Part shown: positions 1-20,400 of the stretch, one piece after another
Layout: every line of letters starts with the position of its first letter
Position numbering within the stretch: position 1 is the stretch's first letter
Origin: an uncultured Clostridia bacterium
GTDB taxonomy: Bacteria; Bacillota; Clostridia; JAAYHZ01
Assembly: GCA_937894465.1 (NCBI GenBank)
Contig: CALCRE010000047.1
Span: forward strand, 2,208-66,207
Direction of reading: 5' to 3'
Length of the DNA: 64,000 bases
Made by a program: the position numbers and the translations under genes
The notes under the pieces: generated by a model
Seen by the model: only the letters and a program-made list of their open reading frames with translations
The model's database searches: none
Told to the model about the DNA's origin: nothing

Positions 1-1
1 G

Positions 2-2077: not shown

Positions 2078-3653
2078 TTTATTATATGAACCATGGATTT
2101 TGGTGTTAACTCAAGAAGGTGAAACAAAGGAAGAATCCCTACTATCAGTACTAGAACATGCGCATGAGCTTCGCTGTATTTCCGGAGAGTTACCTACTCA
2201 GGACGTTGCTGTTTTGAGACTACTATTAGCCGTCTTACATGCGACTTTCACAAGAGTTGATGTGAAAGGAAATCAAGGGGGTATTAGTAATGCTATACAA
2301 GCATTAGAACGATGGGAAAATTTGTGGGAACTAAAGTGTTTTCCGGTAGAACCAATCAAAAAGCGTTTAATCTTCTATGAGGAACGTTTTTACCTTTTCC
2401 ATCCGGAGAGGCCCTTTTATCAGATCAGTGGCCTTAATTACGGGACAAGCTATACTGCAACGAAGCTATTGGGGAACCTATCCGAAAGTGGTAATAAAGT
2501 TAGGTTGTTTCCAGTTAGAACAGGGGATTCAAAACGTACAGTGTCATATGCCGAGGCAGCTAGATGGTTATTATATGTTAATGCTTTTGACGATACATCC
2601 GGTAAACCATCAAAACGAGGACAGAAAATGCCATCTCCCGGAGTGGGCTGGCTTGGTAAACTCGGATTGATTTATGCAGAAGGTTCAAGTCTTTTTGAAA
2701 CACTTATGTTGAACCTTGTGTTTTTAAATGATAAGAACGAGCCGTGGAGCAGTGGCAAAGCTACATGGGAAATTGATAAATCAAGAACAACGGAGCGGGT
2801 AGAAATTCCCTTACCCCAAGATCAAATTACATTACTTACATTACAATCACGCCGTTTACTCCTGCATCGAGAAGAGGGTAGCGTCAGTGGTTATTTGCTA
2901 CTAGGAGGTGACTTTTTTCCTAAAGAGAATTCGTTTACTGAACAAATGACACTCTGGAGAAAAGATCAAAAAAATGACATATATCATCCAAAACGTCACA
3001 ATCCGTCCAAACAATTATGGAGAGATTTCTCCTCACTTCTCGCAAGTAATAATGGCGCCAGAAAACCAGGTGTAGTTCATTGGTTATCATTATTGAAAGA
3101 TCATGATCTTATACGTAATAAGGTTATAATTAGTCTCCGTACTGCAAGTGTTAATTATGGAGATAAAGATTTCTTTGTAACTGATGTTTTTGAAGATTCT
3201 GTTTCAATCAATTCAAATATTCTGTCTCATCTTGGTGAGGAGTGGGTTATACGAATTATCAAGTTACTATCTGTCACTGAGGATTGTATAAGGTATATTG
3301 GTTATCTTGCCTCTGATTTGGCGATGGCTTGCGGTGACAGTGATAGCCAACATCATAAAGCCGGGGAAGGAAGCGGTAATGCTGCGAAGGCTGAAGCATA
3401 TTATCAAATGGACTTACCATTTCGAAAATGGCTTGCTGATATAAATCCGTCACAAACAGATCCGGATGAGGTAGAGCATGCTTGGAAGGAGACCGTAAGT
3501 CAGATACTCTTGAAACTCGGTGAAGAGATGGTGTATCGGACGGGAGAAAAAGGTATCACCGGTCGTTATGTCAATAATAGATACTATACTGCACCAAGTG
3601 CTTTGTTGAAGTTTCGTTCCAATGTAATACAAACATTAGAGAAAGGAGGTTAA
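2058..3653 (+). CDS. cse1: Cascade large subunit Cse1/CasA (Cas8e)
   Basis: 531 aa, with an N-terminal FNLLYEPWILV motif resembling the Cse1 N-terminus. Sits between cas3 and cse2 with a 20-nt overlap on cas3. Confidence 0.8.
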   Translation: MQEKEFNLLYEPWILVLTQEGETKEESLLSVLEHAHELRCISGELPTQDVAVLRLLLAVLHATFTRVDVKGNQGGISNAIQALERWENLWELKCFPVEPIKKRLIFYEERFYLFHPERPFYQISGLNYGTSYTATKLLGNLSESGNKVRLFPVRTGDSKRTVSYAEAARWLLYVNAFDDTSGKPSKRGQKMPSPGVGWLGKLGLIYAEGSSLFETLMLNLVFLNDKNEPWSSGKATWEIDKSRTTERVEIPLPQDQITLLTLQSRRLLLHREEGSVSGYLLLGGDFFPKENSFTEQMTLWRKDQKNDIYHPKRHNPSKQLWRDFSSLLASNNGARKPGVVHWLSLLKDHDLIRNKVIISLRTASVNYGDKDFFVTDVFEDSVSINSNILSHLGEEWVIRIIKLLSVTEDCIRYIGYLASDLAMACGDSDSQHHKAGEGSGNAAKAEAYYQMDLPFRKWLADINPSQTDPDEVEHAWKETVSQILLKLGEEMVYRTGEKGITGRYVNNRYYTAPSALLKFRSNVIQTLEKGG

Positions 3654-3654
3654 C

Positions 3655-4284
3655 ATGGAGGAAAGTAGGAATTTATCATACCTTATAAGGAAATTAACCG
3701 AGGAGAAGATCGAACGATTATTAATGGAAGATCCGTGGAGCCGTGCTATGCTAGCAAAATTGCGAAGAGGAATAGGGAAGCAACCGGGAGAACAACCGGA
3801 ACTATTTGAAATATTGCTTAATAATGTTCCGGAAGATCTATATGGGAAGGGTGACGAGGTCAGTAAACCCGTTTGGGCAATTTATACTGCATTGACATTG
3901 TTTGCACTACACCAGCAGGGTAACGAACAACCAATGAGTAATAGCGGTAATGCGGAGGGTAAAAAGCAGGGCAATTCTTTAGGTACTGCTGTCGGATACT
4001 TGGTAAAGAAAAATGATGAAGATCGAAAGAGTGCTGTAAAGCGCCGTTTTGATGCAGTGATAACCGCGAACGAATTTACTGAGTTTGCGTACCATGCGCG
4101 AAGTTTAATTCAATTGCTCAAAGCGGAGAAAATTACTTTAGATTATCCGCATTTGGCTGAGGACTTTTATTGGTACCAATTTGATGAAGTGAGAAATCGA
4201 ATTCGAATGCGCTGGGGCGAGGACTTTTATCGTATAGCGCAAAGGAATGATCATAAAGAAAACGGAGGAGTATGTAATGAGTAA
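3655..4284 (+). CDS. cse2: Cascade small subunit Cse2/CasB (Cas11e)
   Basis: 209-aa basic helical protein in the cse2 position, translationally coupled to cse1 and overlapping the cas7 start (ATGAGTAA). Confidence 0.7.
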   Translation: MEESRNLSYLIRKLTEEKIERLLMEDPWSRAMLAKLRRGIGKQPGEQPELFEILLNNVPEDLYGKGDEVSKPVWAIYTALTLFALHQQGNEQPMSNSGNAEGKKQGNSLGTAVGYLVKKNDEDRKSAVKRRFDAVITANEFTEFAYHARSLIQLLKAEKITLDYPHLAEDFYWYQFDEVRNRIRMRWGEDFYRIAQRNDHKENGGVCNE

Positions 4285-5362
4285 AATTAATAATCGGGTC
4301 TTTGTTGATATTCATGTTATCCAATCTCTGCCACCTAGTTGTGTCAACCGGGATGATACCGGTAGCCCGAAAACAGCAGTATATGGCGGTGTTCGCCGTG
4401 CAAGGATTTCGTCTCAATCTTGGAAACACGCTATGAGACAAATGTTTCGGGATTATTTTGATGAAATTGATCTGGGTGAAAGAACCAAAAAGATTGTTGA
4501 GAAAGTCGCAGAACAGATCCGTCTTTTATGTGAAATTGATTTGGAAGAAGCTATGACATTAGCTGAAAAAATCATTAACCAAACCGGGGTCGACACTAAA
4601 GACAAAGAGGCAAAAGCTCTCTTTTTTATGAGTAACAAACAAGCAGAGGCATTAGCACATATGGCTATTGTGGATCCTATTCCAAGTAAAAAAGAAGTAC
4701 AAGAAGCTTTAAATAAGGGTACAGGTGTAGATATAGCATTATTTGGACGTATGGTAGCTAATGATCCTGCTTTGAATGCAGATGCATCTGCGCAGGTAGC
4801 TCATGCGATTTCAACACACAAGGTAGAAAATGAATACGACTATTTTACTGCCATGGATGATCGTTCAGCAGAAGATCAGGCAGGTGCCGGTATGATCGGT
4901 ACAGTCGAATTTAATTCGTCTACTCTTTATCGTTATGCGACTGTTGCAGCTCATGATTTAAAAAAGAACCTTGGAGATGTAGCGATTTCCTCAAAAGCAA
5001 TCAAGGAATTTTTGCGAGCTTTTATATGTTCTATGCCCACCGGTAAGCAGAATACCTTTGCTAATAACACTCCGCCCTATGCAGTAATGGTGGCTATTCG
5101 CCAAGATCAGCCCATAAATTTTGTATGTGCTTTTGAGACACCGGTCAAGGCTAAAGAAGGTGGTTACCAGAGTAAGTCTGCAGTAGCATTAGCAAAGTAT
5201 GCGCAATTTGTTTATGATCGGTACTTTGCTGCACCAAAATATTCTTTTGTAATATCTATGGACAAGGAATTTGAAGGATTAGGTGATGCGGTCGAACTTC
5301 CCGATCTTTTAATTAAGGCAGAACAAATAGTGTACAAGCTCTTGCAAGAAAACGGGGTTTAA
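4277..5362 (+). CDS. cas7: Cascade backbone subunit Cas7e/CasC
   Basis: N-terminal VFVDIHVIQSLPPSCVNRDDTGSPK and GGVRRARISSQSWKH motifs match the CasC family. The start at ATG 4277 is preferred over ORF-track 4247 because of a GGAGGA ribosome-binding site 7 nt upstream. Confidence 0.85.
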   Translation: MSKINNRVFVDIHVIQSLPPSCVNRDDTGSPKTAVYGGVRRARISSQSWKHAMRQMFRDYFDEIDLGERTKKIVEKVAEQIRLLCEIDLEEAMTLAEKIINQTGVDTKDKEAKALFFMSNKQAEALAHMAIVDPIPSKKEVQEALNKGTGVDIALFGRMVANDPALNADASAQVAHAISTHKVENEYDYFTAMDDRSAEDQAGAGMIGTVEFNSSTLYRYATVAAHDLKKNLGDVAISSKAIKEFLRAFICSMPTGKQNTFANNTPPYAVMVAIRQDQPINFVCAFETPVKAKEGGYQSKSAVALAKYAQFVYDRYFAAPKYSFVISMDKEFEGLGDAVELPDLLIKAEQIVYKLLQENGV

Positions 5363-5364
5363 GC

Positions 5365-6087
5365 ATGAGTACATTATTACTACGATTAGCAGCACCTCTG
5401 CAATCTTGGGGCGTAGCAAGCAAATTTGACACTCGTGATACTGCAAGAGAACCGACCAAAAGTGGTGTGATTGGCTTGATTGCTGCAGCACTCGGTTGTA
5501 GTCGAACAGACAGTGGCGATGCCGCCAAGTGGCTTGAAAAGTTGAAAGATCTGAATTTTGCAGTACGAGTTGATCAAACCGGAGTGTTGTTGCGAGACTA
5601 TCATACAGCTAAGAAACTTAAGGACCAGACCTCCTTTGTCACCGTACGTTATTACTTAGCTGATGCGATTTTTCTAGTTGGCTTGGAGGGAGAAAAAAGT
5701 TTTTTGATGAAGCTTATGGAAGCATTACAAAATCCTGTTTTTCCTTTGTATCTTGGAAGGCGTTCTTGCCCTCCCACGGGCCGGATGGTTTTAGGAATAC
5801 GAGAACGGACACTTCAGCAAGCACTTGAGGAAGAATCTTGGCAAGCAAGTGAATGGTATCAAAAGAGAAAGTCATATCAAGCTAAGTTGACGATTGTTCG
5901 TGATGCAAAATCAAGTGAACAAGATGTCTTTTTAAGGAGAGATTTACCAATTTCTTTTGATCAAAGAAATCGCCGATATGGTTTTCGTTACGTGTCGGAC
6001 ATAGCTGAAGCGTTGTATGTATCGATACCTGAACGTGTTGCAGAGGAACCAACAGAGTGCGATGCAATGGAAGAATTGGAGGATTGA
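5365..6087 (+). CDS. cas5: Cascade subunit Cas5e/CasD
   Basis: N-terminal LLLRLAAPLQSWG...SGVIGLIAAALGCSR is the typical Cas5e glycine-rich signature. In the cas5 position. Confidence 0.8.
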   Translation: MSTLLLRLAAPLQSWGVASKFDTRDTAREPTKSGVIGLIAAALGCSRTDSGDAAKWLEKLKDLNFAVRVDQTGVLLRDYHTAKKLKDQTSFVTVRYYLADAIFLVGLEGEKSFLMKLMEALQNPVFPLYLGRRSCPPTGRMVLGIRERTLQQALEEESWQASEWYQKRKSYQAKLTIVRDAKSSEQDVFLRRDLPISFDQRNRRYGFRYVSDIAEALYVSIPERVAEEPTECDAMEELED

Positions 6088-6091
6088 TTAT

Positions 6092-6754
6092 ATGTATTTG
6101 TCTAGAATTGCGTTAAACACAAATAGAAAAGATACCATGACCGCTTTGGCTTCACCTCAGAAACTGCATGCAGCGGTGGAAAGCAGCTTTCCTCCAAGTG
6201 ATGAAAAAGCAAACCGAAATATTTGGCGCATTGATCGGTTAAACAATAATTTATATTTGCTTGTTCTCAGTGATAAGAAACCTGATTTTTTACATATAGT
6301 AGAGCAGTTTGGCTGGCCTGGCGCTGAGCAAAAGTGGGAAACCAAAGATTATACTATTTTGCTGGAGCGCATAAAAGAAGGTCAAACATGGCAGTTTCGG
6401 CTGAGAGCAAATCCGATACATCATGTAATAGCAAATGGTGAAACACAGACACAAGAAAAAAAGCAAAGAGGTAAGATTTATGCTCATGTCACAGAGGATC
6501 AGCAAAGCAAGTGGTTGCTAGATCGTGGAGAAAGATATGGATTTATGCTAAATGTTGACTCGTTTCGTGTTGTGCAACGAGACATAAAGAGATTTAAACA
6601 CCGTAATGGTTTTATAACATTGGGTATAGCTACGTATGAAGGGGTCTTGGAGGTTACGGATGTAACTTTGTTTCGAAATGCATTAATTAATGGTATAGGT
6701 CGAGCAAAAGCTTACGGGTGCGGTTTGATGACAATAGGTAAGGTGTCGACATGA
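6092..6754 (+). CDS. cas6e: crRNA endoribonuclease Cas6e/CasE
   Basis: Starts MYLSRIALNTNRKD (compare E. coli CasE MYLSKVII) with GGAGGA 8 nt upstream. The upstream in-frame ATG at 6017 would overlap cas5 by 70 nt and lacks a ribosome-binding site. The C-terminus carries the Gly-rich GIGRAKAYGCGLM motif. Confidence 0.8.
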   Translation: MYLSRIALNTNRKDTMTALASPQKLHAAVESSFPPSDEKANRNIWRIDRLNNNLYLLVLSDKKPDFLHIVEQFGWPGAEQKWETKDYTILLERIKEGQTWQFRLRANPIHHVIANGETQTQEKKQRGKIYAHVTEDQQSKWLLDRGERYGFMLNVDSFRVVQRDIKRFKHRNGFITLGIATYEGVLEVTDVTLFRNALINGIGRAKAYGCGLMTIGKVST

Positions 6755-7773
6755 GCGGTAATAGCGGAAAAATAAAGCCGAATCTTCAAGCTTTACCTGT
6801 TATTAAAGAACGAATCTCCTTCTTGTATTTAGAACGGTGTTTGGTTAATCGTCATGATAATGCTATTACAATAACAGATATCCGTGGTACAGTGTATGTC
6901 CCCGCCGCTGTTCTTTGTGTCATCATGCTAGGACCAGGCACAAATATCACACATCGCGCTATGGAACTCATTGGTGATACAGGAACTAGCGTTTTATGGA
7001 TCGGTGAACACGGAGTGCGCTATTATGCTCATGGGCGGCCATTGACGCACTCTGCTCGTTTACTGATACAACAGGCAGAACTGGTATCCAATACACGTAG
7101 CCGTTTAGCTGTTGCTCGCCGTATGTATTCTATGCGTTTTGAAGGTGAAGATGTCTCTAAGATGAGTATGCAACAATTACGAGGAAGAGAAGGTTCAAGG
7201 ATTCGCGCTGTTTACCGTGAGGCGTCTGATAAAACGGGAGTTCCTTGGAACAAACGAGAGTACGACCCTAATAATTTTACAGCAAGTGATCCTGTAAACA
7301 TGGCGCTATCCTCCGCACATGCATGCCTATACGGTGTGGCACATAGTGTTATCGTGGCATTGGGGTGCTCCCCGGGTCTTGGTTTTGTACATACAGGACA
7401 CGAGAGATCATTTGTTTATGATATCGCTGATCTCTATAAAGCAGAAATAACAATACCGATTGCATTTAAGGTTGCAGCACAACAACCGGAGGATATTGGC
7501 TCAGTGACCAGACGTGCTGTTCGTGATGCTATATCTGATGGTATGATTTTAGAACGCATGGTAAAAGATATTCGTGAGCTGATTTTAGGTTTTTCAGAAG
7601 ATGGTTCATCATTAGATGTTCCGGAAATTGAAACTAATATTATAAAACTATGGGACGAAAAGAATGGTTTTGTGAAAAATGCAGTTTCTTATGGAAAAGA
7701 ATTGGATGATATGGAATCCGAGATGATAGATTTTATTGAAGGTTACGGCACGTTTGTGGAGGAAGAGACATGA
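6751..7773 (+). CDS. cas1: CRISPR integrase Cas1 (I-E)
   Basis: Strong similarity to E. coli Cas1 (YgbT) throughout (ISFLYLERC, LGPGT, FVHTGHERSFVYDIADLYKAE). Start overlaps the cas6e stop (ATGA). Confidence 0.9.
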   Translation: MSGNSGKIKPNLQALPVIKERISFLYLERCLVNRHDNAITITDIRGTVYVPAAVLCVIMLGPGTNITHRAMELIGDTGTSVLWIGEHGVRYYAHGRPLTHSARLLIQQAELVSNTRSRLAVARRMYSMRFEGEDVSKMSMQQLRGREGSRIRAVYREASDKTGVPWNKREYDPNNFTASDPVNMALSSAHACLYGVAHSVIVALGCSPGLGFVHTGHERSFVYDIADLYKAEITIPIAFKVAAQQPEDIGSVTRRAVRDAISDGMILERMVKDIRELILGFSEDGSSLDVPEIETNIIKLWDEKNGFVKNAVSYGKELDDMESEMIDFIEGYGTFVEEET

Positions 7774-8654
7774 TAGTCATATCTTTAGCGGATTGTCCTG
7801 TCAGTTTGCGTGGTGATCTTACAAAATGGTTGATGGAAATAAGCGCAGGAGTATTTGTCGGACAAGTCAGTGCACGAGTTCGAGATCATCTATGGGAACT
7901 TATTAAGAAAACGGCCAAGAATGGTAAAGCGATAATGGTATTCAATACTAATAACGAGCAACGATTGGATTTCCGTGTTTATAATAATACGTGGGAGCCT
8001 ATTGATTTTGATGGTATAAAGTTGATGCTTCGACCTAGCCCTTCTCGGATTAAGCATTTAAGTGAACTCCGTTTAGGTTATAGTAAAGCAAGTAAAAGAC
8101 AGATAGCGAAGCAAGCTGCCAATAAACAAAGTTCCAATTTACCTGGTTCATATGTTGTAGTAGATGTTGAAACAAGTGGACTTAATCTAGAAGAACATAA
8201 AATAATTGAGATCGGAGCAATTCGTGTAGAAGATCATTGTATAGCAGAACGATTTTCTTTACTAGTGCGACTAGAAGAAGCTATTCCAACACAAATAGAA
8301 GAGCTAACAGGCATTACGAACGATTTATTACAAAAAGAAGGTATTGACATAGAAATTGCCTTAAAACAATTCATCTCCTTTGTACGTGATTTACCCATGG
8401 TATCCCATAATGCGGATTTCGACTATAGATTCCTACGCAAAGCATGCGACGATTGCAATATTTCATATATCGGCAATAGGTGCTTCGATACACTAACACT
8501 TGCCCGAAGGAAAATTAGGCAGATTGACAATTTCAAGTTGAGTACGCTAGCAAATTATTTTGGAATTGTAATTGCGAAACAACATCGAAGCATTGATGAC
8601 TGTGAAATAACCTATCAAATCTATGAGAAACTCATTAATTTAGACAAATTTTAA
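7770..8654 (+). CDS. cas2: Cas2 fused to a DnaQ-like DEDDh 3'-5' exonuclease domain
   Basis: The N-terminal ~95 aa has the Cas2e fold pattern (MIVISLADCPVSLRGDLTKWL...). The C-terminal domain carries Exo I VVDVETSG, Exo II SHNADFDYRFL and Exo III HRSIDDCEITYQI motifs of the DnaQ/epsilon family. Start overlaps the cas1 stop. Confidence 0.85.
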   Translation: MIVISLADCPVSLRGDLTKWLMEISAGVFVGQVSARVRDHLWELIKKTAKNGKAIMVFNTNNEQRLDFRVYNNTWEPIDFDGIKLMLRPSPSRIKHLSELRLGYSKASKRQIAKQAANKQSSNLPGSYVVVDVETSGLNLEEHKIIEIGAIRVEDHCIAERFSLLVRLEEAIPTQIEELTGITNDLLQKEGIDIEIALKQFISFVRDLPMVSHNADFDYRFLRKACDDCNISYIGNRCFDTLTLARRKIRQIDNFKLSTLANYFGIVIAKQHRSIDDCEITYQIYEKLINLDKF

Positions 8655-8660
8655 AACTGA

Positions 8661-8688
8661 AACTGGCTTCACAGGCCAGTTTTCTTAG
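8661..8688 (+). terminator. Hairpin (AACTGGC-7 nt-GCCAGTT) followed by a T-rich tract between the cas2 stop and the first CRISPR repeat
   Basis: Seen directly in sequence: a 7-bp stem and TTTTCTT tail. It sits where a leader would be expected, so it could be a terminator or a leader structural element. Confidence 0.4.
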
Positions 8689-8689
8689 T

Positions 8690-11098
8690 GTGTTCCCCGC
8701 GCATGCGGGGGTGATCCTTGCTTTTCCTCCGAAAACCAGGATCCATTAGTGTGTTCCCCGCGCATGCGGGGGTGATCCTATCATAAGTTACGTACTTTTG
8801 CAAGCATGTTTGTGTTCCCCGCGCATGCGGGGGTGATCCTATTGTGATCCCGAATGGCAAGCTGATGCTTTAGTGTTCCCCGCGCATGCGGGGGTGATCC
8901 TAAAAGGTGACCTACTTCATGGGCAATCGTAAAGTGTTCCCCGCGCATGCGGGGGTGATCCTAGCCGATTGAAATTACATTACGGCATTATCAAGTGTTC
9001 CCCGCGCATGCGGGGGTGATCCTGTGTCGGTGTTCGGTGTCTTGGATCTTGACCAGTGTTCCCCGCGCATGCGGGGGTGATCCTAAAGCATCCAAAGCTT
9101 CCGGCAAAGCATCTACGTGTTCCCCGCGCATGCGGGGGTGATCCTTTCTGACCGACAATTGGAAACTATTAGAAGCAGTGTTCCCCGCGCATGCGGGGGT
9201 GATCCTTACTGAAGAAATAATATTACATTTGTGTTACAGTGTTCCCCGCGCATGCGGGGGTGATCCTGCAGACATTGATTGATCGGCATGGAGGTAACTG
9301 TGTTCCCCGCGCATGCGGGGGTGATCCCTTTTTCTTTAGCCCAAAGTTTCACAACATCTTGTGTTCCCCGCGCATGCGGGGGTGATCCTTATCTTCGGGT
9401 TCCCCGTATGAATCTCTGCCGGTGTTCCCCGCGCATGCGGGGGTGATCCTGAATGACGTTTTTCAGAAGAAGAACAACGAGGGTGTTCCCCGCGCATGCG
9501 GGGGTGATCCTGAATGACGTTTTTCAGAAGAAGAACAACGAGGGTGTTCCCCGCGCATGCGGGGGTGATCCTTGGTCGTACTGGATCTGGTAAAACATAC
9601 GGAGGTGTTCCCCGCGCATGCGGGGGTGATCCTTAATGACAACGGATGGAAAGTTTTAAAACTTGTTGTTCCCCGCGCATGCGGGGGTGATCCGTATCCG
9701 GATATGCCGTTTGTTACGGCAATAATGTGTTCCCCGCGCATGCGGGGGTGATCCTTTGGATTAGACTATGAAAAAAGTGTCATAGAGGTGTTCCCCGCGC
9801 ATGCGGGGGTGATCCTGATGGAAAAGGATAAAAACACGTTAGACGAAAGTGTTCCCCGCGCATGCGGGGGTGATCCTGTTGGCATTCTGTGCAATCAAAT
9901 GGTGATCTGGTGTTCCCCGCGCATGCGGGGGTGATCCTACTACGACACAGATCACTTAGAAAAGGTTAAAGTGTTCCCCGCGCATGCGGGGGTGATCCTC
10001 GTCCCGGATCAGTTTGTAAGCCCCTAAATACGTGTTCCCCGCGCATGCGGGGGTGATCCTACTTTACAGTGAAATTTGCTGTTATAACGATAGTGTTCCC
10101 CGCGCATGCGGGGGTGATCCCAAATAAGTTGGTTTTTTTGTATCTCGTCCACAAGTGTTCCCCGCGCATGCGGGGGTGATCCTAACCCGAATATCAACTG
10201 AAACCAAGAAATACCGTGTTCCCCGCGCATGCGGGGGTGATCCTAAATCTTAACGGAGGTAATTTAACATGACGTAGTGTTCCCCGCGCATGCGGGGGTG
10301 ATCCCCATGCTCTGTTTTGGTAGTTTTCGCATGTTTCGTGTTCCCCGCGCATGCGGGGGTGATCCTGGTACCGATCATCATAACAGAAAAACAAAGACGT
10401 GTTCCCCGCGCATGCGGGGGTGATCCTTGAAATAGATTCTTTCCTTTTTTTTCTTCAAGTGTTCCCCGCGCATGCGGGGGTGATCCCAAAACATACAGAG
10501 GTATTATACAGATTTTGATGTGTTCCCCGCGCATGCGGGGGTGATCCTAGTTGCCTAACGTGATCTCATTCCTCGGTATAGTGTTCCCCGCGCATGCGGG
10601 GGTGATCCTATATCTTCATCAAGTGCGTTTGCATCACCTGTGTGTTCCCCGCGCATGCGGGGGTGATCCGTACAGCCCAAGAGAAATCGGATCCGAAAAG
10701 GCGTGTTCCCCGCGCATGCGGGGGTGATCCTAATGGGTATTTATAAAGGTAATGTAAGATTAAGTGTTCCCCGCGCATGCGGGGGTGATCCTACGGTTAG
10801 CCGGTCCGATAAAACCGGCGTTAGGTGTTCCCCGCGCATGCGGGGGTGATCCTAAACCCCTACTAACGGTTTAGCAATGCGTTATGTGTTCCCCGCGCAT
10901 GCGGGGGTGATCCTTAACCGGTTGCAAGGGCAGTTGGTTAGTGCATGTGTTCCCCGCGCATGCGGGGGTGATCCCTCGGGAGCATACAATCTTATATTTT
11001 CCAGAAGGGTGTTCCCCACTCATGCGGGGGTGATCCTGTCTGTATTATGTAGTGAGTAGGCATCCCCGTGTGTTCCCCGCGCATGCGGGGGTGATCCC
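8690..11098 (+). CRISPR. Type I-E CRISPR array: 40 repeats of 29 bp (GTGTTCCCCGCGCATGCGGGGGTGATCCT) and 39 spacers of 31-33 bp
   Basis: Repeats were read directly at a 61-bp period from 8690 to the last repeat at 11070-11098. The repeat is palindromic (CCCCGCGC/GCGGGGG) and ends GTGATCC, like firmicute I-E repeats. Read 5'->3' on the + strand it begins with the canonical I-E GTGTTCCCCGCGC head. The minus-strand ORFs the track lists across this region are artefacts. Confidence 0.97.
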
Positions 11099-11352
11099 TC
11101 CTGCAGCTCCAACCGTAAAGTAAAGAGTAAGCTTGCAAAACGAGGACTTCCAACGGAGGTTTTAAAAGTTATGCCTGAAAGAAGGTATCAGGTGACATCG
11201 TTATATGCTAAGTATCTTACCTGCGAAAGATGAAAAGAAAATTCGATAAATTCTGCATTTTTTCAGATACAATTGTTAATATATCACATACAAACAGAAA
11301 TAGTATCGAAATAATAAATTAGACTATTCAAGCAGATTGAAGCTGATAATTA

Positions 11353-11382
11353 TTGACTTATGTTTTAACCTAATAGTATGAT
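11353..11382 (+). promoter_or_regulatory. Candidate sigma-A promoter (TTGACT-18 nt-TATGAT) for the giant surface-protein gene
   Basis: Hexamers read in the AT-rich gap 120 bp upstream of the GTG/ATG start at 11500-11506. A GGGGGG ribosome-binding site lies 9 nt before the start. Confidence 0.35.
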
Positions 11383-11499
11383 ATGGATAGATATTTTATG
11401 GTCAAAAAAATTGTATACATAAAAAGTGAAGGCCAAAAGGACTAAAAGGATAATTATCTATATAGATAAATAAAAAAATAAAAATGGGGGGTACATATT

Positions 11500-14400
11500 G
11501 TGAAGATGTTAAAGAAAATCACAAGTATCATTCTAGCCTCTGTTATGTGTTTCACAAGTATGTCTGATCAACTGTTGGGTTTTACTGTAACTTCAACTGT
11601 ATATGCAGAAGGAAGTTCGGCAACGGTTAATATCTGTTACGACAACTTCGCCGATACAACGAATTTACAAGTAAACGGCGATATGATTGAAAATAATATC
11701 TTACGCTTTGTAAATGAAGGAGTCCCTGAAAGTATATTTACAAAAGATGCGATTGTTTTAGGTGAGAACCTTTCTTTTAGTACGGCTTTTTCTTTCAAAA
11801 ACCTCTCGCCTTCAGAACCCGCTCCGCAAACAAAGGGCGGTTTTATCTTCACACTGCAACCGATTGGAAACTTCGTTACGACGGATGATTTTCAACATAA
11901 TAATATTTCACCTGCAATTAGTATAGCTTTCGAATTTGAATATATTGATGCTTTTATACCTACAGCATTTAGTCCGTCAGTAAAATTAGAGAGCTCTTCT
12001 AGCACTGACTTTTTGATAGCCCAAGAAGCCCCCCCGAAACTTTGCAGTATCAATATGGTTACATATATCAACGGTGACTATGCTAACCCTATATCCCGGC
12101 ACCCTTTGACGACATATTATGTAACCGCTGAGATTGCTGAATATGATCATGTATGGATCGGATATGACGGTGTCAATAAGGAGCTTGAGATTTTGTATGT
12201 TGACCCTTCCGGTAAATATACACATATTACGGAACCGTTGGATCTTGTTTTACCAAATGAAGTGTATGCAGGTTTTATGGGTTCTTTCGGAAATGCCGGA
12301 AACACAAATACGATCAACAGCTGGTATTTTAAAGATGACTTGTCCATTATGGATCAAGGTATAGTGGATGCCGACATGGCTTTTCTAAATCTTGAGATGG
12401 AACAACTTGAAGTTGATTCTATTGATAATTATACATTTCCTCTTTGCGGGCATTTCGGGAGCACCATCAGTTGGACATCAAGCAATATGGGTGTGGTGGC
12501 AACAGACGGGACTGTAAATCCTCCCTCAATTGGGGAAGGGAATAAAACAGTGATACTAACTGCGGCATTATCGAAGGGGTTACAGGTACGGACGACAAGA
12601 CCGTTTATGATAACAGTCAGAGTACCGGATGTTGTAATTGTCAATGCAGATTTTGAATGGTTAACCGATTTCATTATAAAGAAGAATAACGACGATTTAA
12701 ATCATGTTGTTTCAAACTTGAACCTTCCTACCTTAGGTAATTTCGGAAGCGTGATCAGTTGGGAGTCTAATGATACGGTCATATTAAATTGGGATGGAAC
12801 GGTAAATAGACCTGCTTATAACGAAGTTGATAAGACGGTTACCCTTACTGCTCATATAACAATGAATTATTATACATTAGATAAGACATTCACTGTTACG
12901 GTAAAAGCTATAGAACCAACTGATGAAGAAAAATTGAATGCTGATGCTTCCTGGTTGAATTTATATATGTTGAATGAGGATTTAAGTGATGTAACTTCAG
13001 ATTTAACTCTTCCGGATACAGGTCCTTCCGGAAGTACCATCAGCTGGGCATCTAATAATACGACAGTCTTGAATGCTGACGGGACTGTAGCAAGACCTGC
13101 ATACACAGCAGGGAATGTTGTGGTTACACTGACAGCAACAATCAGCAAGGGTGTAGAAACTACTGATCTCGTATTTACTGTAACAGTCATAAAGCAAGCT
13201 CAAACTGATGTAGAAGCAGTATCTGCTGATGCCGCATTACTAACAGATGCTGTGATCTTAAATGGAAATAGCGCACTGAACAATGTTATGGGTCATTTAA
13301 CTTTACCTACTCTTGGTGCAAACGGGAGTACCATCAGCTGGACCTCCAATAATACAACAGTTTTGAATACAGACGGGACTGTGACAAGACCTGCATACAC
13401 AGCAGGGAATGTTGTGGTTACACTGACAGCAACAATCAGCAAGGGTGTAGAAACTACTGATCTCGTATTTACTGTAACAGTCATAAAGCAAGCTCAAACT
13501 GATGTAGAAGCAGTATCTGCTGATGCCGCATTACTAACAGATGCTGTGATCTTAAATGGAAATAGCGCACTGAACAATGTTATGGGTCATTTAACTTTAC
13601 CTACTCTTGGTGCAAACGGGAGTACCATCAGCTGGACCTCCAATAATACAACAGTTTTGAATACAGACGGGACTGTAGCAAGACCTGCATACGCGGCAGG
13701 GAATGATGTGGTTTCACTGACAGCAACAATCAGCAAGGGTGTAGAAACTACTGATATCGTATTTACTGTAACAGTCATAAAGCAAGCTCAAACAGATGCC
13801 GAAGCGGTATCTGCTGATGCGACATTGTTAACAGATAATGTGATCTTAAATGGAAATAGCGCACTGAACAATGTTACAGGTAATTTAAGCTTACCTACTC
13901 TTGGTGCAAACGGAAGTACGATCAGTTGGGCATCGAATAATACGACAGTTTTAAATGCTGACGGGACTGTAACAAGACCTACATACACAGCAGGAAATAT
14001 TGTTGTTACACTGACAGCAACCGTCAGCAAGGGTACAGAAACTACTGATGTTGTGTTTACTGTAACAGTCATAAAGCAAACACAAACCGATGCAGAAGCA
14101 GTATCTGCCGATGCGACATTGCTGACAGATGACGTAATCTTAAATGGAAATAGCGCACTGAACAATGTTGTGAATAATTTAAGCTTACCTACTCTTGGTG
14201 CAAACGGAAGCACCATCAGCTGGGCATCTGACAATACGACAGTCTTGAATGCTGGCGGGATTGTAACCAGGCCTGCATACACAGCAGGGAATGTTGTTGT
14301 TACGCTGACAGCAACGGTTAGCAAGGGAGTAGAAACTACTGATGTTGTGTTTACTGTAACGGTTATAAAACATGAACAAACAGATGCAGAAGCGGTATCT

Positions 14401-17400
14401 GCTGATGCCGCATTGCTAACAGATGATGTGATTTTAAATGAAAATAGCGCACTGGATAATGTTACGGGAAATTTAATCCTCCCTGTTCTTGGTGCAAACG
14501 GGAGCACCATCAGTTGGGAATCCAATAATACGACATTCTTGAGTAATGACGGGACTGTGATTAGACCTTCCTATACTGCAGGTAGCAAGACCGTTGTTAT
14601 TACCGCTACCATTAAAAAGGGAGTTGTTACTCAAACAAAATCTTTTGGATTGACGATAAAAGCTTCGGATATTACCGATGAAGAACGTGTATCATTAGAT
14701 TATGCATGGTTAACCAAATACAATGTATTAGAGCTCAATCCTTCGATAAATTCTGTAGAGTGGAATCTTTCATTCCCTGTAGCCGGTCCGAACAATTCTG
14801 TTATTACTTGGGAGTCAGATATGCTTTCGGTTATTACTAATGACGGTACCGTCATTCGACCGGAATATGGGCAGGGGCATAAATCGGTCAATGTCACAGC
14901 AACTGTAACAAAAGGGATTTTTCAACGAAAAGCACACTACATCTATGTGGTTTTACAAAAACCTGATCTGGAAGCTCCTATGGTGGTAAGCTCACTACCT
15001 TTTAATAACGGAAGAGCACTCTATGATACAAAGGAAATCACATTGGTATTCAATGAAAACATTATTTTAGGGCCTGCTGCTTTGAGTAATCCGAATACAT
15101 ATGGAATAAAGCTTCAAGGAACCGATACTGTTTTGTTCCGTGCAGCTATAGAGAATGAAAACAAGCTTATTGTATCAACAACTTCCGGTTTAAGTGCAGG
15201 GGAATACAAGCTAATCATTCCGGCGGGTACTTTTGTTGACAAAGCCGGTAATCAGACAAAAGCTTATGAATTAATCTTTATGGTTTCCCCGAAACCGGGA
15301 AAATTAACGGTTGTCTCCTCAACACCGAAAGACCTTGAAGTGGATGTAGATGTGAATATAAGAGAAATCCTCATTCAATTTGATTCCACTAATCTTGTAC
15401 GAAATACTAGCTCCATTCCAATATTTTTAAGGGAGAAAACAACTAAGATTAGTCGCTCAAGCTCTTTTTCAGTCACAGGGGATACGGTCACTTTGAGGAT
15501 ACCGGCACCTCTTTCTTCAGGATTGGTATATGAAATAGTCATACCCGGGGGGATTGTCAAAGATTCGAATAACAACATCAATGAAGAAAAAATCATTCAG
15601 TTTAGGACGAAGTATTCCGGAGCAAAGCCGGTGCTTGTGAAAACCAAACCTGTGAACGGGCAAATGAATGTTAGTTTAAATGATGTTAGTATTGAATTAG
15701 AGTTCTCGCAGAATATTGATTTTTTGACTCTGACGAATTATATAACTTACCTTGTGGATGACCAAGGAAATAAGTACAATTTTATGCCGTATAAAATTGG
15801 AGGAAGCTCAAAAAGGTGGAAGCTAACAACTCCCCACTTAAGTCATTATAAACAGGGTACAACATACACTTTAGTGGGTCCTTACGGTACTTTGGAAAAC
15901 CCGGATTTATTGGAATTCAATGTTCAATTTACAACAGCTTCAAATCGAATGCAGGTAGTTAACAAGTCTCCGAAGTCTTGGTTAGGAAATCCTTTGGATC
16001 AAAAAGTAGAAATTGAATATAACTATCCTGTGGAAATCGGTCCGACCTATTGGGACGTCACTTTCAAGGATTCAAAAGGAAATCCCGTTGACTTTATTAG
16101 GGAAGAGATCGGGAAAAAGGTAACTTTCACACCCATCTCATTACTATCACCGTCTGAAACCTATACGGTAACCATTCCTGAAGGCGCATATAAAGGAGAA
16201 AGTGGATATATAAACGACGGGATTCAGTTTGATTTCCGAACCGTCCAAAAGTTTGATATTAGTATCAATAACCTGATCATTCCGGATCAGGGGTTTGTTG
16301 ATAAGATCCTTTTATTCGATGCAGCTGAAGCTGGAAACATTGCCAGAAGAGCAGGGTCAAATGTCTCATCTTATGAGTGGAACATTGACGGGAAAGTAAT
16401 CGGAAATCAAAAATATGTGTATTATACATTCATTTCTCCGGGTATTCATAAGCTGACCCTTACCATCATCGATGACAAGAACATTCCTTATGTTTTCGAA
16501 AAAGACATCACTGTGAACCACTTGACTGATATAAGGATGACTTTAAAAGACAATGGTTATTCTCCCCGCGGTGTATTTTTAGCGGATCAAAATTCTAAGG
16601 GTATTGTATATAAACTTCAATTGACACAAGAAGGCAAAACCGTTTATGGTGAGAAAATTGATGTGGAACTATACTATAAAGGTGTGTTACAGCGACGATA
16701 CAACAAAATCACATCAAAATTTGGAGATGACACGTATCTATTTGAATTTAAACCGGAATTCGGAGCTTTTGGCAACTATGAGTTGGTGTTTACCTATCAA
16801 GGTGTCGGATATAAAGAGGTGATTCGAGAACCTGTGGTTGTTTCATCTTCCCAGGCTACCATGACTCAAGTATTCTCGTTTCGATTGAGAGACATTTTTG
16901 CATGGAATAGTCCTGAATATTTTGAGGAAGCTCAAAACCTTCAGGTGATCATCAATGGAGAAAAGATGCTTGCATATAAAAAGTGGGATTCTCAGCGTGG
17001 ATATTATGTCTATCAAATCAACAAGATGATGTTGGCAAATACCTACTATCAAATGGAAATTCCTTCTTTTAAGATTGATCGTTGGATTAAGTCTATTTAT
17101 GTCGGAAAAGAAGGATCGGATCCTACCGTTATATCCGGATGGCCTTTAAGACCCGGAGGTATTCAAGAAATCAGTGTTAATTACGATGAAAGCTCTGTGC
17201 TTTATCCTTTCACCGAATTCTATTTTGAAGGTGTATCCGCAAAGCTGGTATTTGATGTGGAAGCAGATTGGAAAGAGGCAGAACCCGGATACTATGAAAT
17301 CAAGTCAATGAATGATCGGTTCAATATAAAAGTTCGCTCTAACGGAAGCGGTGTTCAGAAGATTGTTCTTGATCCGGGATTGGAGTTGAAACCGGGAGAA

Positions 17401-20400
17401 AATTTGGTCATTCGAATGGTATCCAAGCAAGGTGCGGCATCCGGTTGGATATACTGCCCCTATTTCGTTGTAGTTCCTCAGCCTGAGATTTTAGGGCAAA
17501 AGCTGTCCATATCCCTTCAAAGTGGGGAATACGCAGTAAACTGGCCTAACGAGTTTACCGGTGCTTTAGGTAGTAAAATAAGTATGTTTGACGGTGTTCC
17601 GGTTTTGGATGGCGGGAACTTCGGCATTGGCGGCGGTATGCCTACATTCGAGGGTGATCTCGAAGGTGATTGGGCGAATCCCGAAATTAACCTTTCTTTT
17701 GGGGCTAGCGGAGGATATGGAGAAAAGAGTAAAAAGAAAGCAGATACTAAATACAAAAAGGTGAAGAAAGTCACCACGGTAGGTTATGAATTTAGCATTG
17801 AGATTGAAGGTGCATTCACCCTTACATATGATTCACAGAGTAAAGAATGGGATATGTATGGATTCTATATTATGTTGATCGGTGACTTTATCAAAGAGTG
17901 GTCCAAAGGATACGACATGATGGGTGTGGGATTCTCCGCAGGAGTTGGTGTCGGAGGTGAAGTCGCCGGAGGATTGAAGGTGGATATGGCAACCGACGAC
18001 ACCCAATACAGCGGATTTATAAGGATCACACCACGTGCTTTTCTCAGGGTATCGGGAGACTTTTTGGTGGCTTCTGTGAATGGGTATTTGAATGGTTGGA
18101 TTCCGGTTGAAGTACACTTTCCCACCGGATATATCGGTGCAGACATCCAAATCAGTGCTAAAATTCACGCAAAAGCACTATTATGGTCGAAGACAATCTA
18201 TGAAAAGAATCTGCTATCAGAGCATTGGGATAATGGAAAGCCCCAGGTTGTTATCAAGTCTTTAAAGAACTTTAAAATGTTTGAAGACCCTGATACTTTC
18301 CAATTGATGTCTAGGGACTATATCAACAGGCAATCCGTTTGGGCAGCACAGGATAGCGGTTTGGTCAGTGTTATGGCTGTTGGATTTAATGAAAACCCGG
18401 ATACTGAACTAATGATGGAAAACATGTATCCTGATGCTGAACTTATGATGGTAGAAAACCAAGATGAGTTATGGCTTGTATGGACAGATGACAATGCCGA
18501 AAGGGATGATGCAAATCGAACTCAATTACGTTTTGCAGTTCAAAGCAACGGCACATGGAGTAAGCCTGTGTGGATCCACGATGACAAAACAGCTGATTTT
18601 GCTCCCGTTGCAGCAAGTACTGGAAACGGTGTGCTCATGGCATGGCAAAACATCGGGAAACACATTACCGAAGAAGATGGCTTATCCGAAATGTTGAAAA
18701 ACTCCGAAATCAGTGTCACTCAAACCGGTTATACATCCACCGGGGTGGCACCGAATATTATCACACTGACAAGTGATGATGCTGTGGATCACTCTCCCCA
18801 TATTGCAGCACATGGTGATCAGGCATTGCTGGTTTGGACGAAATCAACCGGATTAACCACCGTATTGAATGCAGGAGAAGACCAGCCCGGAAAAGATGAT
18901 CATCGTTTATACTATTCTGCTTGGAACAACGGTGTCTGGAGTACCCCGGAAGCCATTTCAAGTGTGTCCGAAACTGTAATGGATGCTCATTTGGTTATGG
19001 AAGGGGAAACCGGCTTGCTGCTATATACATTAGATATGGATCAGGATCTGTATACCACAGAAGACAGAGAAGTTTTTGTAAGACTTTATGAGAGAAATGC
19101 TTGGAGTGATGCAATTCGGCTCTCAAATAATTCTTATCATGATTGTGCTCCGAAAGCTGTGTTTGTAGAAAGCAATTGGTTCATTACGTGGTTACAAGAA
19201 GGAAACATCCTGTACAGATACGGTTTAGACGGAGATATAAAAGATGAAGAACGATTGCAAAATATTCAAGGGGATTATCAAATTGCTGTTGTTCCGGGTG
19301 AAAAGCCCCTGGTTTCTTTAGTTCATATCAAGCCCGGTGAGGATATGACAACCGGTGCTCATGCTTTCTTCTATGACTTAACATTAGAACAATGGGGTAA
19401 TTCCGTTGCATTGTCGGATTTAGAAAACCATGTGAAAGCGATCAGTTTGGTTTCTACCCAAGATGGAAATATAAATGTTGCATATACCCAAGCTGACATC
19501 ATCACAGAGGCAAATCCTATAGTGATTGAAGGTGTGAAGCAATTTGTGGAAACCCCTGCAATCGGAAATCAGACGGATATGAAGTTGTTGACATATACAC
19601 CGGTTCATGATGTAGCCCTTTCTAAAGAAGATGGAATATTGCTCTCCACGGAATTCCCGTTGCCTGAAATTTTAACTTCTGTTTATGTAACTGTGCAAAA
19701 CCAAGGAGATTATGCAGAGTACGTGAAAGTACGAATTTATGACGGGGATCCTAACGAACAAGGAGTACTCATCGGTGAAACTCCCATGCAGTTACTCCCT
19801 GCACATACATCGAAAGAGTTGGAGATCCCTTGGCTGGTAGACACCGAAGAAAAAGCCACTTATCACTTGTACGCAACAATAGAGCCTCAATTCGGTGTGC
19901 AGGAGATCAATGTTGGGAACAACACCATTGATTTGGCATTTTCTACTGCAGATATTGCAATTACCGATTTGATATATGAAAACATGGTGGCGGATGAATA
20001 TGTAGTGACAGTTACTGTAACTAATACCGGAGGAAAAACCTTGGATGGTGCAACGGTGAATTTAGAAAGTGATGTTGATGGAACCGTTTTAGAGACTAAA
20101 TCACTTGGGGTTCTCGCACCCGGACAGCGGACTGTTGTAACTTATATGATTTCATCAGAAGGTTTGCCCCTAGGAACAGATGGAAAAGTCAACCTACTTG
20201 TTCGTGTCAACCCATCGGAGGGTATCACAGAGGATTTCACAGAGAACAATATGAGAAGGTTTTCACTGAAACCTACAGCAATTACCGTTACAGGAGTAAG
20301 CCCCGGGCCGAAAGACAAAAATGTTGCATTGACAAGTAACATAACACTATCATTTAACATGAATGTTTCCGAAGGCACCGGGTATGACCGCATCCGGTTA

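Follow-up and report, generated by a model that had tools for sequence, protein, structure and literature searches.

The CRISPR array in a 64,000-nt stretch of DNA from an uncultured Clostridia bacterium (contig CALCRE010000047.1; hereafter the window) starts only 35 bp downstream of cas2-dnaQ, the last gene of a type I-E cas operon, which encodes Cas2 fused to a DEDDh exonuclease. This gap (8655-8689, between a stop codon that ends at 8654 and a first repeat that starts at 8690, as the initial annotation had placed it) is probably the stretch closest to the repeat in a compact I-E leader that measures about 62 bp and would begin with the last 27 nt of cas2-dnaQ, stop codon included. The initial annotation had regarded so short a gap as an oddity; comparison with relatives makes it the rule in Cas2-DEDDh type I-E loci, including a Streptococcus CRISPR4-type locus and, by inference, that of Megasphaera. 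What was observed as an anomaly is ordinary for this clade, and the window locus reads as an ordinary, probably active I-E system of it. The elements concerned are the following, with negative positions counted upstream from repeat 1.

8628-8689, forward strand: putative compact leader, -62..-1, 69% A+T; 8628-8654 lies inside the coding sequence and stop codon of cas2-dnaQ
8628-8640, forward strand: upstream block AAACTCATTAATT, -62..-50, consensus AAA[C/G]TnA[A/T]T[G/A]AA, encoding Lys287-Leu288-Ile-Asn
8652-8654, forward strand: stop codon TAA of cas2-dnaQ, -38..-36
8660-8682, forward strand: lineage-specific hairpin with arms AAACTGGC (8660-8667) and GCCAGTTT (8675-8682) around the loop TTCACAG, followed by TCTTAGT
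8681-8689, forward strand: junction motif TTTCTTAGT, -9..-1, one mismatch to the consensus TTTTT[T/A]AGT
8690-11097, forward strand: CRISPR array, 40 repeats of 28 nt and 39 spacers with a 61-nt period
8690-8717, forward strand: repeat 1, GTGTTCCCCGCGCATGCGGGGGTGATCC, a perfect copy and the expected site of spacer integration
11009-11036, forward strand: penultimate repeat, with two mismatches that break the stem (CCCCACT for CCCCGCG); it marks the trailer end

A fixed distance between a conserved leucine codon of cas2-dnaQ and the array

A profile made from 27 Cas2-DnaQ homologues was used to scan 185,579 species genomes; 245 relatives were found, and the best 80 of the 245 were analyzed. In the 58 loci with an adjacent array, the array always lies on the strand of cas2-dnaQ and its repeats have the same orientation. 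Nearly all have a gap of 14-51 bp; the modes are 29-30, 43-45, and 26 bp. When the distance is measured from the first base of the Leu288 codon (8631-8633 in the window), repeat 1 begins after 58-60 nt in 51 of 59 loci. In the loci that follow this 59-nt rule, the protein continues for 2-13 aa past the leucine and the gap is 14-47 bp, and the two trade off exactly: the leucine codon, the tail, the stop codon, and the gap add up as 3+24+3+29, 3+9+3+44, 3+39+3+14, or, in the window, 3+18+3+35, each time to 59.

Across these loci, Cas2 identity falls to about 44%, the protein length ranges from 288 to 335 aa, and the middle of the 59-nt segment has no sequence conservation. Because of this divergence, length variation, and unconserved middle, the fixed length appears to be kept by selection on DNA and not by recent ancestry. 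The same 59 nt is found in L085 (a metagenome locus with a 20-bp gap), in L112 (29-bp gap), and in L111, the Streptococcus CRISPR4-type locus, which has a 20-bp gap and a Val codon instead of Leu. These comparisons across loci establish that the tail of cas2-dnaQ reads into what appears to be a leader of fixed length, with the stop codon floating inside it. The gap ranges from 14 to 47 bp (35 here) because the reading frame runs into the fixed-length segment until it meets a stop; the position of the stop codon within the leader varies widely across the family, and -38..-36 is the window's case. The usual description of a leader as intergenic, non-coding, and about 100 bp or longer does not fit this segment, only 35 bp of which is intergenic.

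The rule would also extend to a characterized system. The Megasphaera Cas2-DEDDh protein has a tail of 3 aa, for which a gap of 44 bp is predicted, and 44 nt is the length of the "leader strand" of Wang et al. 2023. In the full-text literature searched, there was no explicit description of a leader-cas2 overlap or of a 59-nt rule, although a prior description is possible.

Conserved blocks within the probable leader

Repeat-anchored, ungapped information content over 54 non-redundant loci brings out three blocks. At the junction, information reaches 1.87 bits at -5..-1, and the conserved leader-repeat junction reads TTTCTTAGT in the window and CTTTTAGA in Escherichia coli K-12. Further upstream, an A-rich block, AAAAA, is conserved at -31..-27, and the upstream block has A at -62 in 89% and at -61 in 98% of the loci. 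The gap had initially been described as holding just a hairpin and a T-tract; this T-tract is the conserved I-E junction motif. The option that the functional leader overlaps the 3' end of cas2-dnaQ, raised in the same description, finds support in the fixed 58-60 nt, in the blocks that reach back to -62, and in the retention of the upstream block in non-coding DNA.

This retention is seen in seven loci that depart from the 59-nt rule and have gaps of 51-157 bp. All seven carry a position weight matrix match to the upstream block at -61..-63, where it stands in non-coding DNA or in a different reading context; in six of them, at most one other position in the 260 nt upstream of the repeat scores higher. 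The matches are strong in L017 (11.4 bits), L018 (16.4 bits), L040 (8.8 bits), and L056 (7.5 bits), and weak in L073 (3.8 bits), L029, and L052; the null frequency of a score of at least 8 bits is 1e-4 per position. In L017 and L018, the leader copy of the block lies inside a degenerate duplicate of the 3' end of cas2 that is no longer protein-coding. These two loci (L017 6892-7047, Desulfoscipio; L018 6892-7048, Sporotomaculum) have about 115 extra bp between cas2-dnaQ and the leader, and their leader starts with the degenerate duplicate of the gene's last ~45 nt, as if an ancestral overlap had been resolved by duplication.

Codon usage within the block was compared with that elsewhere in the same genes by Fisher tests, in which relatedness is ignored. 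Lys287 is encoded by AAA in a ratio of 39:4 against 463:373 elsewhere (p = 2e-6), and Leu288 by CTN in a ratio of 42:5 against 832:509 (p = 8e-5). When set against other conserved columns, both positions are the most extreme, but narrowly: 0.91 for Lys287 against 0.37-0.79, and 0.89 for Leu288 against 0.48-0.83. Together, the long-gap loci and the codon skew argue for an additional, DNA-level role of the upstream block.

The leader-proximal end of the array

The initial annotation disfavored a leader at the far end of the array, and the relatives strengthen this judgment. In 31 complete arrays of the family, the trailer flank has no conserved position (maximum 0.34 bits), whereas the cas2 flank has many; mean A+T is 68% in the cas2 flanks and 51% in the trailer flanks. 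The window agrees with this, as its A+T-rich segment lies directly upstream of repeat 1 and the first 62 nt past the array have only 50% A+T. The first repeat is perfect in 29 of the 31 arrays, and 20 of the 31 have at least one mismatch in the last two repeats. As had been stated, the window's repeat reads in canonical I-E orientation on the forward strand; the Megasphaera Cas2-DEDDh repeat has this orientation as well when placed behind its leader in Wang et al. 2023. The accompanying statement that degenerate repeats lie at the far end is only weakly true: 38 of the 40 repeats are perfect, and the penultimate repeat has its two mismatches, but the final repeat is perfect and the other variant is internal (at about 9666, with an altered first base).

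The check proposed initially, namely which end carries strain-specific spacers, points to the cas2 end in two independent lineages. Ten Pelotomaculum contigs from different samples encode one and the same Cas2-DnaQ, which is 71% identical to that of the window; their leaders are identical too, the gap is 29 bp, and the downstream genes are common to most of them. The arrays form a nested series. Spacers 1-15 and 18-30 are present in one strain, others carry one, two, or five more at the cas2 end, and in one strain 25 spacers at the cas2 end are unique, with only spacers 29 and 30, at the far end, in common with the rest. The Collinsella loci L050 and L051 (26-bp gap) have the same polarity. 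In relatives of the same design, spacers evidently enter at the cas2-proximal end.

For the species of the window, the evidence consists of one spacer in L100 and three spacers in L081, and covers the cas2 end of the array. L100 is identical to the window over 7807-8717 (911 nt) yet has a different first spacer, which is absent from the window, and none of the window's 39 spacers corresponds to any of the first three in L081. When L100 1-1934 is aligned with window 6830-8717, the cas1 part of L100 differs from the window by about 10% and has its identical runs in common with L081; the switch to 100% identity falls at window 7806/7807, just inside cas2-dnaQ, and may reflect strain recombination or chimeric assembly. 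In metagenome contigs, the leader-junction pattern had no match, and the repeat alone was found at 17 loci, none with a spacer of the window. No protein identical to the window's Cas2 is on record.

The hairpin and the transcription of the array

The gap holds a hairpin and a T-tract, as initially described, but the stem has eight perfect pairs and not seven. RNA folding of 8652-8692 gives -13.8 kcal/mol (z = -2.8; 3 of 200 shuffles as stable). L100 has an identical hairpin, and L081, the Cas2 of which is 84% identical and the gap of which is also 35 bp, has AAACTCGC-CATGCAA-GCGAGTTT, with -10.6 kcal/mol and z = -3.2. The gaps of the window and L081 differ at eight positions: five are in the 7-nt loop, two together turn a G:C pair of the stem into C:G, a compensatory swap, and all pairs are kept. 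From this pattern we consider the hairpin a real, lineage-specific, and probably selected feature. The idea that it is a feature of the whole family was rejected, since the mean z of -50..-1 is 0.02 over 48 non-redundant loci and z is below -2 in only 4 of the 48; the next relatives, L002 and L004, have no hairpin on folding, and in other members the segment that it occupies reads AAAATGGC...(T)ATAAGGGGAT. A dispersed palindromic element was likewise rejected, as the hairpin occurs in one copy in the window.

With the following TCTTAGT, the hairpin looks like an intrinsic terminator, having an A-tract, a stem with four G:C pairs, and a UUUUCUU tail; the consensus terminator scan made no call there. 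None of the five hairpin-like loci is among the 11 loci with a strong promoter match described below, which by a hand calculation has a chance of about 0.25, and no anti-correlation is claimed.

In the family, a promoter-like sequence TTGAAA-N17-TA(A/G)AAT stands at a fixed place, with the -35 element at -55..-50 and the -10 element at -32..-27. It scores at least 9/12 in 11 of 48 loci, compared with 0.9% of background positions, and in the class with 29-30-bp gaps the -10 element often takes its first three bases from the stop codon. For about one-quarter of the relatives, the two upstream blocks double, on this match, as a promoter with a predicted start of the precursor CRISPR RNA (pre-crRNA) near -20. 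The leader of the window contains no such promoter by the consensus scan: it has TTAATT-N17-TGAAAC at this place, which scores 6/12, the background level, with the critical A and T of the -10 element lost. From 8207 to the array, the scan found no sigma-70-like site on the forward strand, the scan being limited to the consensus with other promoter types outside it. Our best guess, held with low confidence, is that the window's pre-crRNA arises by transcription that enters from cas2-dnaQ or the cas operon and is modulated by the hairpin and U-tract.

Proposed explanation and alternatives

In the proposed mechanism, the three blocks would position Cas1-Cas2/DEDDh on repeat 1. By analogy, a DNA-bending host protein probably bridges the blocks, as integration host factor (IHF) does in E. 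coli with the junction and the integrase-anchoring site. In the lineage of the window, the leader promoter may have degenerated and -30..-8 may have become a selected hairpin with a U-tract; the hairpin, which would separate the array from the cas mRNA, might then be a leaky terminator or an attenuator, or it might stabilize RNA ends. Our confidence in these lineage-specific steps is low. The combined proposal, which we put forward tentatively, is that the clade uses a ruler-like leader of about 62 bp with a recognition block within cas2-dnaQ, so that the gene of an integrase subunit carries part of the homing site, and that in the window's lineage a selected hairpin replaced the promoter and crRNA output occurs by attenuated read-through from the cas operon. 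If this is true, substrates that end at the intergenic gap, such as the 44-nt Megasphaera leader strand, omit a required element. The omission could explain why the reconstituted integrase lacks a leader-proximal preference, and polarity should return once the final ~20-30 nt of cas2-dnaQ are added, perhaps along with HU or IHF.

Several observations weigh against the explanation by a compact leader that overlaps cas2-dnaQ. The synonymous excess is modest, as other conserved Lys columns reach 0.78-0.79 AAA against 0.91, and the Fisher tests are blind to the relatedness of the loci, so the codon bias is supportive only. The upstream block is at the same time coding sequence for a conserved helix that ends the exonuclease fold, which makes protein constraint a confounder. 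The closest diverged pair has no extra conservation in the last 100 nt of cas2: the initial annotation had suggested looking for nucleotide-level conservation there, and the window and L081 differ at 13 positions per 100 nt, the gene average being 11.7%, while their 38-nt identical run at 8610-8647 is about what is expected by chance in our estimate. L100, being identical to the window over all 911 nt, gives no specific information on this point. The fixed spacing and the blocks could serve a promoter instead of the integrase. A hairpin with a U-tract right before repeat 1 is awkward for read-through; the consensus scan found no sigma-70-like site on the forward strand between 8207 and the array; and the conservation of this hairpin rests on one diverged sequence and one compensatory pair. 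Finally, L100 may be a recombinant or a chimeric low-coverage contig (2.3x) and is weak evidence alone.

The alternative that survives best concerns transcription. The hairpin and T-tract may be a true intrinsic terminator of the cas operon, with the array transcript starting inside or just after the hairpin, so that the 5' arm is absent and termination is escaped. With its A-tract, the G+C-rich core of its stem, and UUUUCUU, the site has the look of a bidirectional terminator, the stem is stable in both the window and L081 and carries the compensatory change, and the -10-like block of the family would put the start near -20, within the hairpin loop. However, the window has no acceptable -10 or -35 element, the terminator scan did not call the site, the end of the hairpin (8682) is very close to repeat 1 (8690), and most relatives have no hairpin. 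We consider this alternative rather unlikely; a terminator with an unrecognized start in the hairpin is nevertheless a serious rival to read-through.

It is also possible that the upstream blocks and their fixed spacing constitute only a pre-crRNA promoter, and that integration needs just the junction motif and repeat 1. The promoter match of the 11 relatives lies exactly at the blocks, a 17-nt spacing would explain the constant distance between the two, and the Megasphaera half-site structure has no base-specific leader contacts (PMC10284694). On the other side, most loci, including the window, its near relatives, and the spacer-acquiring Pelotomaculum, score at background yet keep the spacing; the critical -10 bases of the window are lost; and the distance to repeat 1 is 59 +/- 1 nt, which no promoter requires. 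In favor of a promoter alone, Wei and colleagues reportedly found in 2015 that for type II-A integration a short leader-anchoring sequence, about 10 bp of leader, is enough. On balance, we regard a role in transcription alone as improbable.

The two remaining alternatives have little to recommend them. It is very improbable that the leader was lost by deletion and that the array is a frozen, non-acquiring relic with an accidentally short gap: the gap of 35 bp, the absence of a promoter-like site in the consensus scan, and the absence of a protospacer match in phage records would fit, but nearly every relative has the same architecture with its ruler-like 59-nt distance, the repeats are almost all perfect, all cas genes are intact, and the first spacers of L100 and L081 differ from those of the window. 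A leader and promoter at the 11.1-11.5 kb end, with the array transcribed and extended on the reverse strand, is rejected as the least credible of all, because the AT-rich 400-bp stretch past the array (GC 0.23-0.27) and the reverse-strand promoter-like site in it (11405..11378, TTGACC-16-TATCAT, 10/12) belong to the upstream region of a 3543-aa surface-protein gene with its own forward-strand promoter-like site, and because the repeat orientation (canonical on the forward strand, as in the Megasphaera leader-repeat substrate of Wang et al. 2023), the degenerate repeat, the flank conservation, the base composition past the array, and the strain-specific spacers in the two lineages all stand against it.

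The cas operon, the spacers, and the flanking gene

The forward strand from 1 to 8654 is a type I-E cas operon, with the array downstream on the same strand and cas3, cse1, cse2, cas7, cas5, cas6e, cas1, and cas2 all in one operon:

cut by the window edge, forward strand: cas3 of the type I-E operon
2058-3653, forward strand: cse1, I-E-specific NCBIfam model
3655-4284, forward strand: cse2, I-E-specific NCBIfam model
4247-5362, forward strand: cas7, I-E-specific NCBIfam model
5365-6087, forward strand: cas5, I-E-specific NCBIfam model
6017-6754, forward strand: cas6e, I-E-specific NCBIfam model
6751-7773, forward strand: cas1, I-E-specific NCBIfam model
7770-8654, forward strand: cas2-dnaQ, fusion of Cas2e and a DEDDh 3'-5' exonuclease, 294 aa; NCBIfam, PDB 8FY9

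All eight open reading frames (ORFs) match I-E-specific NCBIfam models above the cut-off except Cas3, which is truncated by the edge. Cas2-DnaQ matches TIGR01873 over residues 1-85 and exonuclease models over residues ~120-290, and it has a full-length match to PDB 8FY9, "Cas2-DEDDh" of Megasphaera (E 6e-53). In the alignment of Cas2-DnaQ homologues, D132, E134, D218, and D277 are invariant and H272 is nearly so; the Cas2-DEDDh module is thus a single polypeptide with its catalytic residues kept.

Some relatives have altered operons. In two loci of the Pelotomaculum population, unrelated genes replace the upstream part of the cas operon, and Cas1, Cas2-DnaQ, and a long array are kept: in L105 a RuvC-Cas7 fusion is called behind YebC-like genes, and in L106 the place of cse1 is taken by an HTH_17/PBP_like gene. 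In the Streptococcus-type loci L111 (2771-3654) and L112 (2807-3639), the ORF calls split Cas2 from the DnaQ domain, and several further cas genes are in fragments; these are possibly decaying loci or frameshifted assemblies, and they still obey the 59-nt rule.

The 40 copies of GTGTTCCCCGCGCATGCGGGGGTGATCC have the features of I-E repeats, which are 28-29 nt long, contain a CCCCGCG...CGCGGGG hairpin, and recur with a 61-nt period. The window's spacers are 33 nt long in 36 of 39 cases, two are 34 nt, and one is 32 nt. The first base after each 28-nt repeat (position 29; 8718-11069) is T in 32 spacers, C in five, and G in two. This variable base looks like a PAM-derived one (PAM, protospacer-adjacent motif), brought in with each spacer; the last G of the E. 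coli repeat is a comparable PAM-derived base, and the Megasphaera data of Wang et al. 2023 show the same variable base. Spacers 13 (9451-9483) and 14 (9512-9544) are identical (TGAATGACGTTTTTCAGAAGAAGAACAACGAGG): one repeat-spacer unit has been duplicated in tandem inside the array. Pelotomaculum arrays have comparable internal duplications, in that L104 repeats spacers 39-42 and L103 and L105 have one doubled spacer each.

A blastn search of the whole array against 50,697 phage records for protospacers returned only other CRISPR-like arrays. One of these records, MT835722.1 ("Bacteriophage sp.", human faeces, unannotated), has four array matches of ~69% identity at 13891-14220 and is presumably a type I-E-like repeat array on a phage or on a misbinned contig. 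No Rfam family matched in 8300-11600, and no terminator was found downstream of the array.

Directly past the array lies a giant ORF (11500-22131, forward strand, GTG start) of 3543 aa. Its product has many atrophied Ig (aBig_2) and Big_5 domains and C-terminal SLH domains, which indicate a cell-surface protein. The ~400 bp ahead of it (11.2-11.5 kb) have 23-27% GC, with promoter-like sites on both strands at 11353-11405.

Significance

The clade-wide 59-nt rule and the lineage-specific hairpin are modestly interesting and testable. For the clade, the rule states that repeat 1 stands 59 +/- 1 nt after the conserved Leu codon, with a floating stop and three blocks, and in the annotation of Cas2-DEDDh systems it fixes the orientation of the array and the boundaries of the leader. 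For users of compact Cas1-Cas2/DEDDh integrases (e.g., in molecular recorders), it would mean that the "leader" must take in the 3' end of cas2-dnaQ. It also offers a testable candidate for the missing determinant of leader-proximal integration.

Comparison with known systems

The hairpin resembles a Rho-independent terminator in its A-tract, its four G:C pairs, its UUUUCUU, and the preservation of the stem by compensation in L081. It differs in that the T-tract doubles as the integration junction motif and no downstream promoter is present for a restart. Read-through into an array has a precedent in the type III-B CRISPR4 of Myxococcus xanthus, in which leader promoter activity is negligible and a polycistronic cas mRNA reads into the array (PMC6061681). 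There, too, the cas genes and the array lie on one strand, and read-through would, by analogy, be the window's most likely mode of transcription. The M. xanthus system belongs to another CRISPR type and phylum and has no hairpin or terminator-like element before repeat 1.

The I-E CRISPR-I of E. coli K-12 has the same subtype and gene order, and its array is also downstream of cas2 on the same strand. Its leader ends in CTTTTAGA|GAGTTCCCC, compared with TTCTTAGT|GTGTTCCCC in the window, which is nearly the same junction motif, and it has an A-tract ~30 nt upstream. Yosef and colleagues are said to have found in 2012 that the E. coli leader functions as a unit of ~60 bp. An upstream element ~50-60 nt from the repeat is needed in E. 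coli: the integrase-anchoring region lies upstream of the IHF site and was mapped among constructs spanning -46 to -57 (PMC5224486). The E. coli IHF site is known, whereas the window leader has the conserved A-rich block at -31..-27 only as a candidate. E. coli further differs in having 105 bp between the cas2 stop and repeat 1, with a leader that is wholly intergenic, a Cas2 without an exonuclease domain, and an upstream element (GTTGGTGGGTTG) unrelated to AAACTnATTGAA.

The closest characterized systems are the Cas1-Cas2/DEDDh "trimmer-integrase" of Megasphaera NM10 and the Cas1-Cas2-DnaQ of S. thermophilus CRISPR4. They share the fused protein (8FY9, E 6e-53) and the repeat family (...GCGGGGGTGATCC), and their leader, too, is on the cas2 side; they have no hairpin like that of the window. 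The Streptococcus CRISPR4-type locus shares the 59-nt rule, with its 20-bp gap. The Megasphaera leader strand has TAAAAG at -31..-26, GGC at -25..-23, and ATAAAGGAAT, like the family consensus. The Megasphaera work takes its leader as given, and an overlap with cas2 is not described in the accessible text. The Megasphaera complex did not favor the leader-proximal repeat in vitro, and its authors suspected that a host factor was lacking (PMC10284694). We hypothesize from the present comparison that the assay may also have lacked an upstream DNA element located inside cas2.

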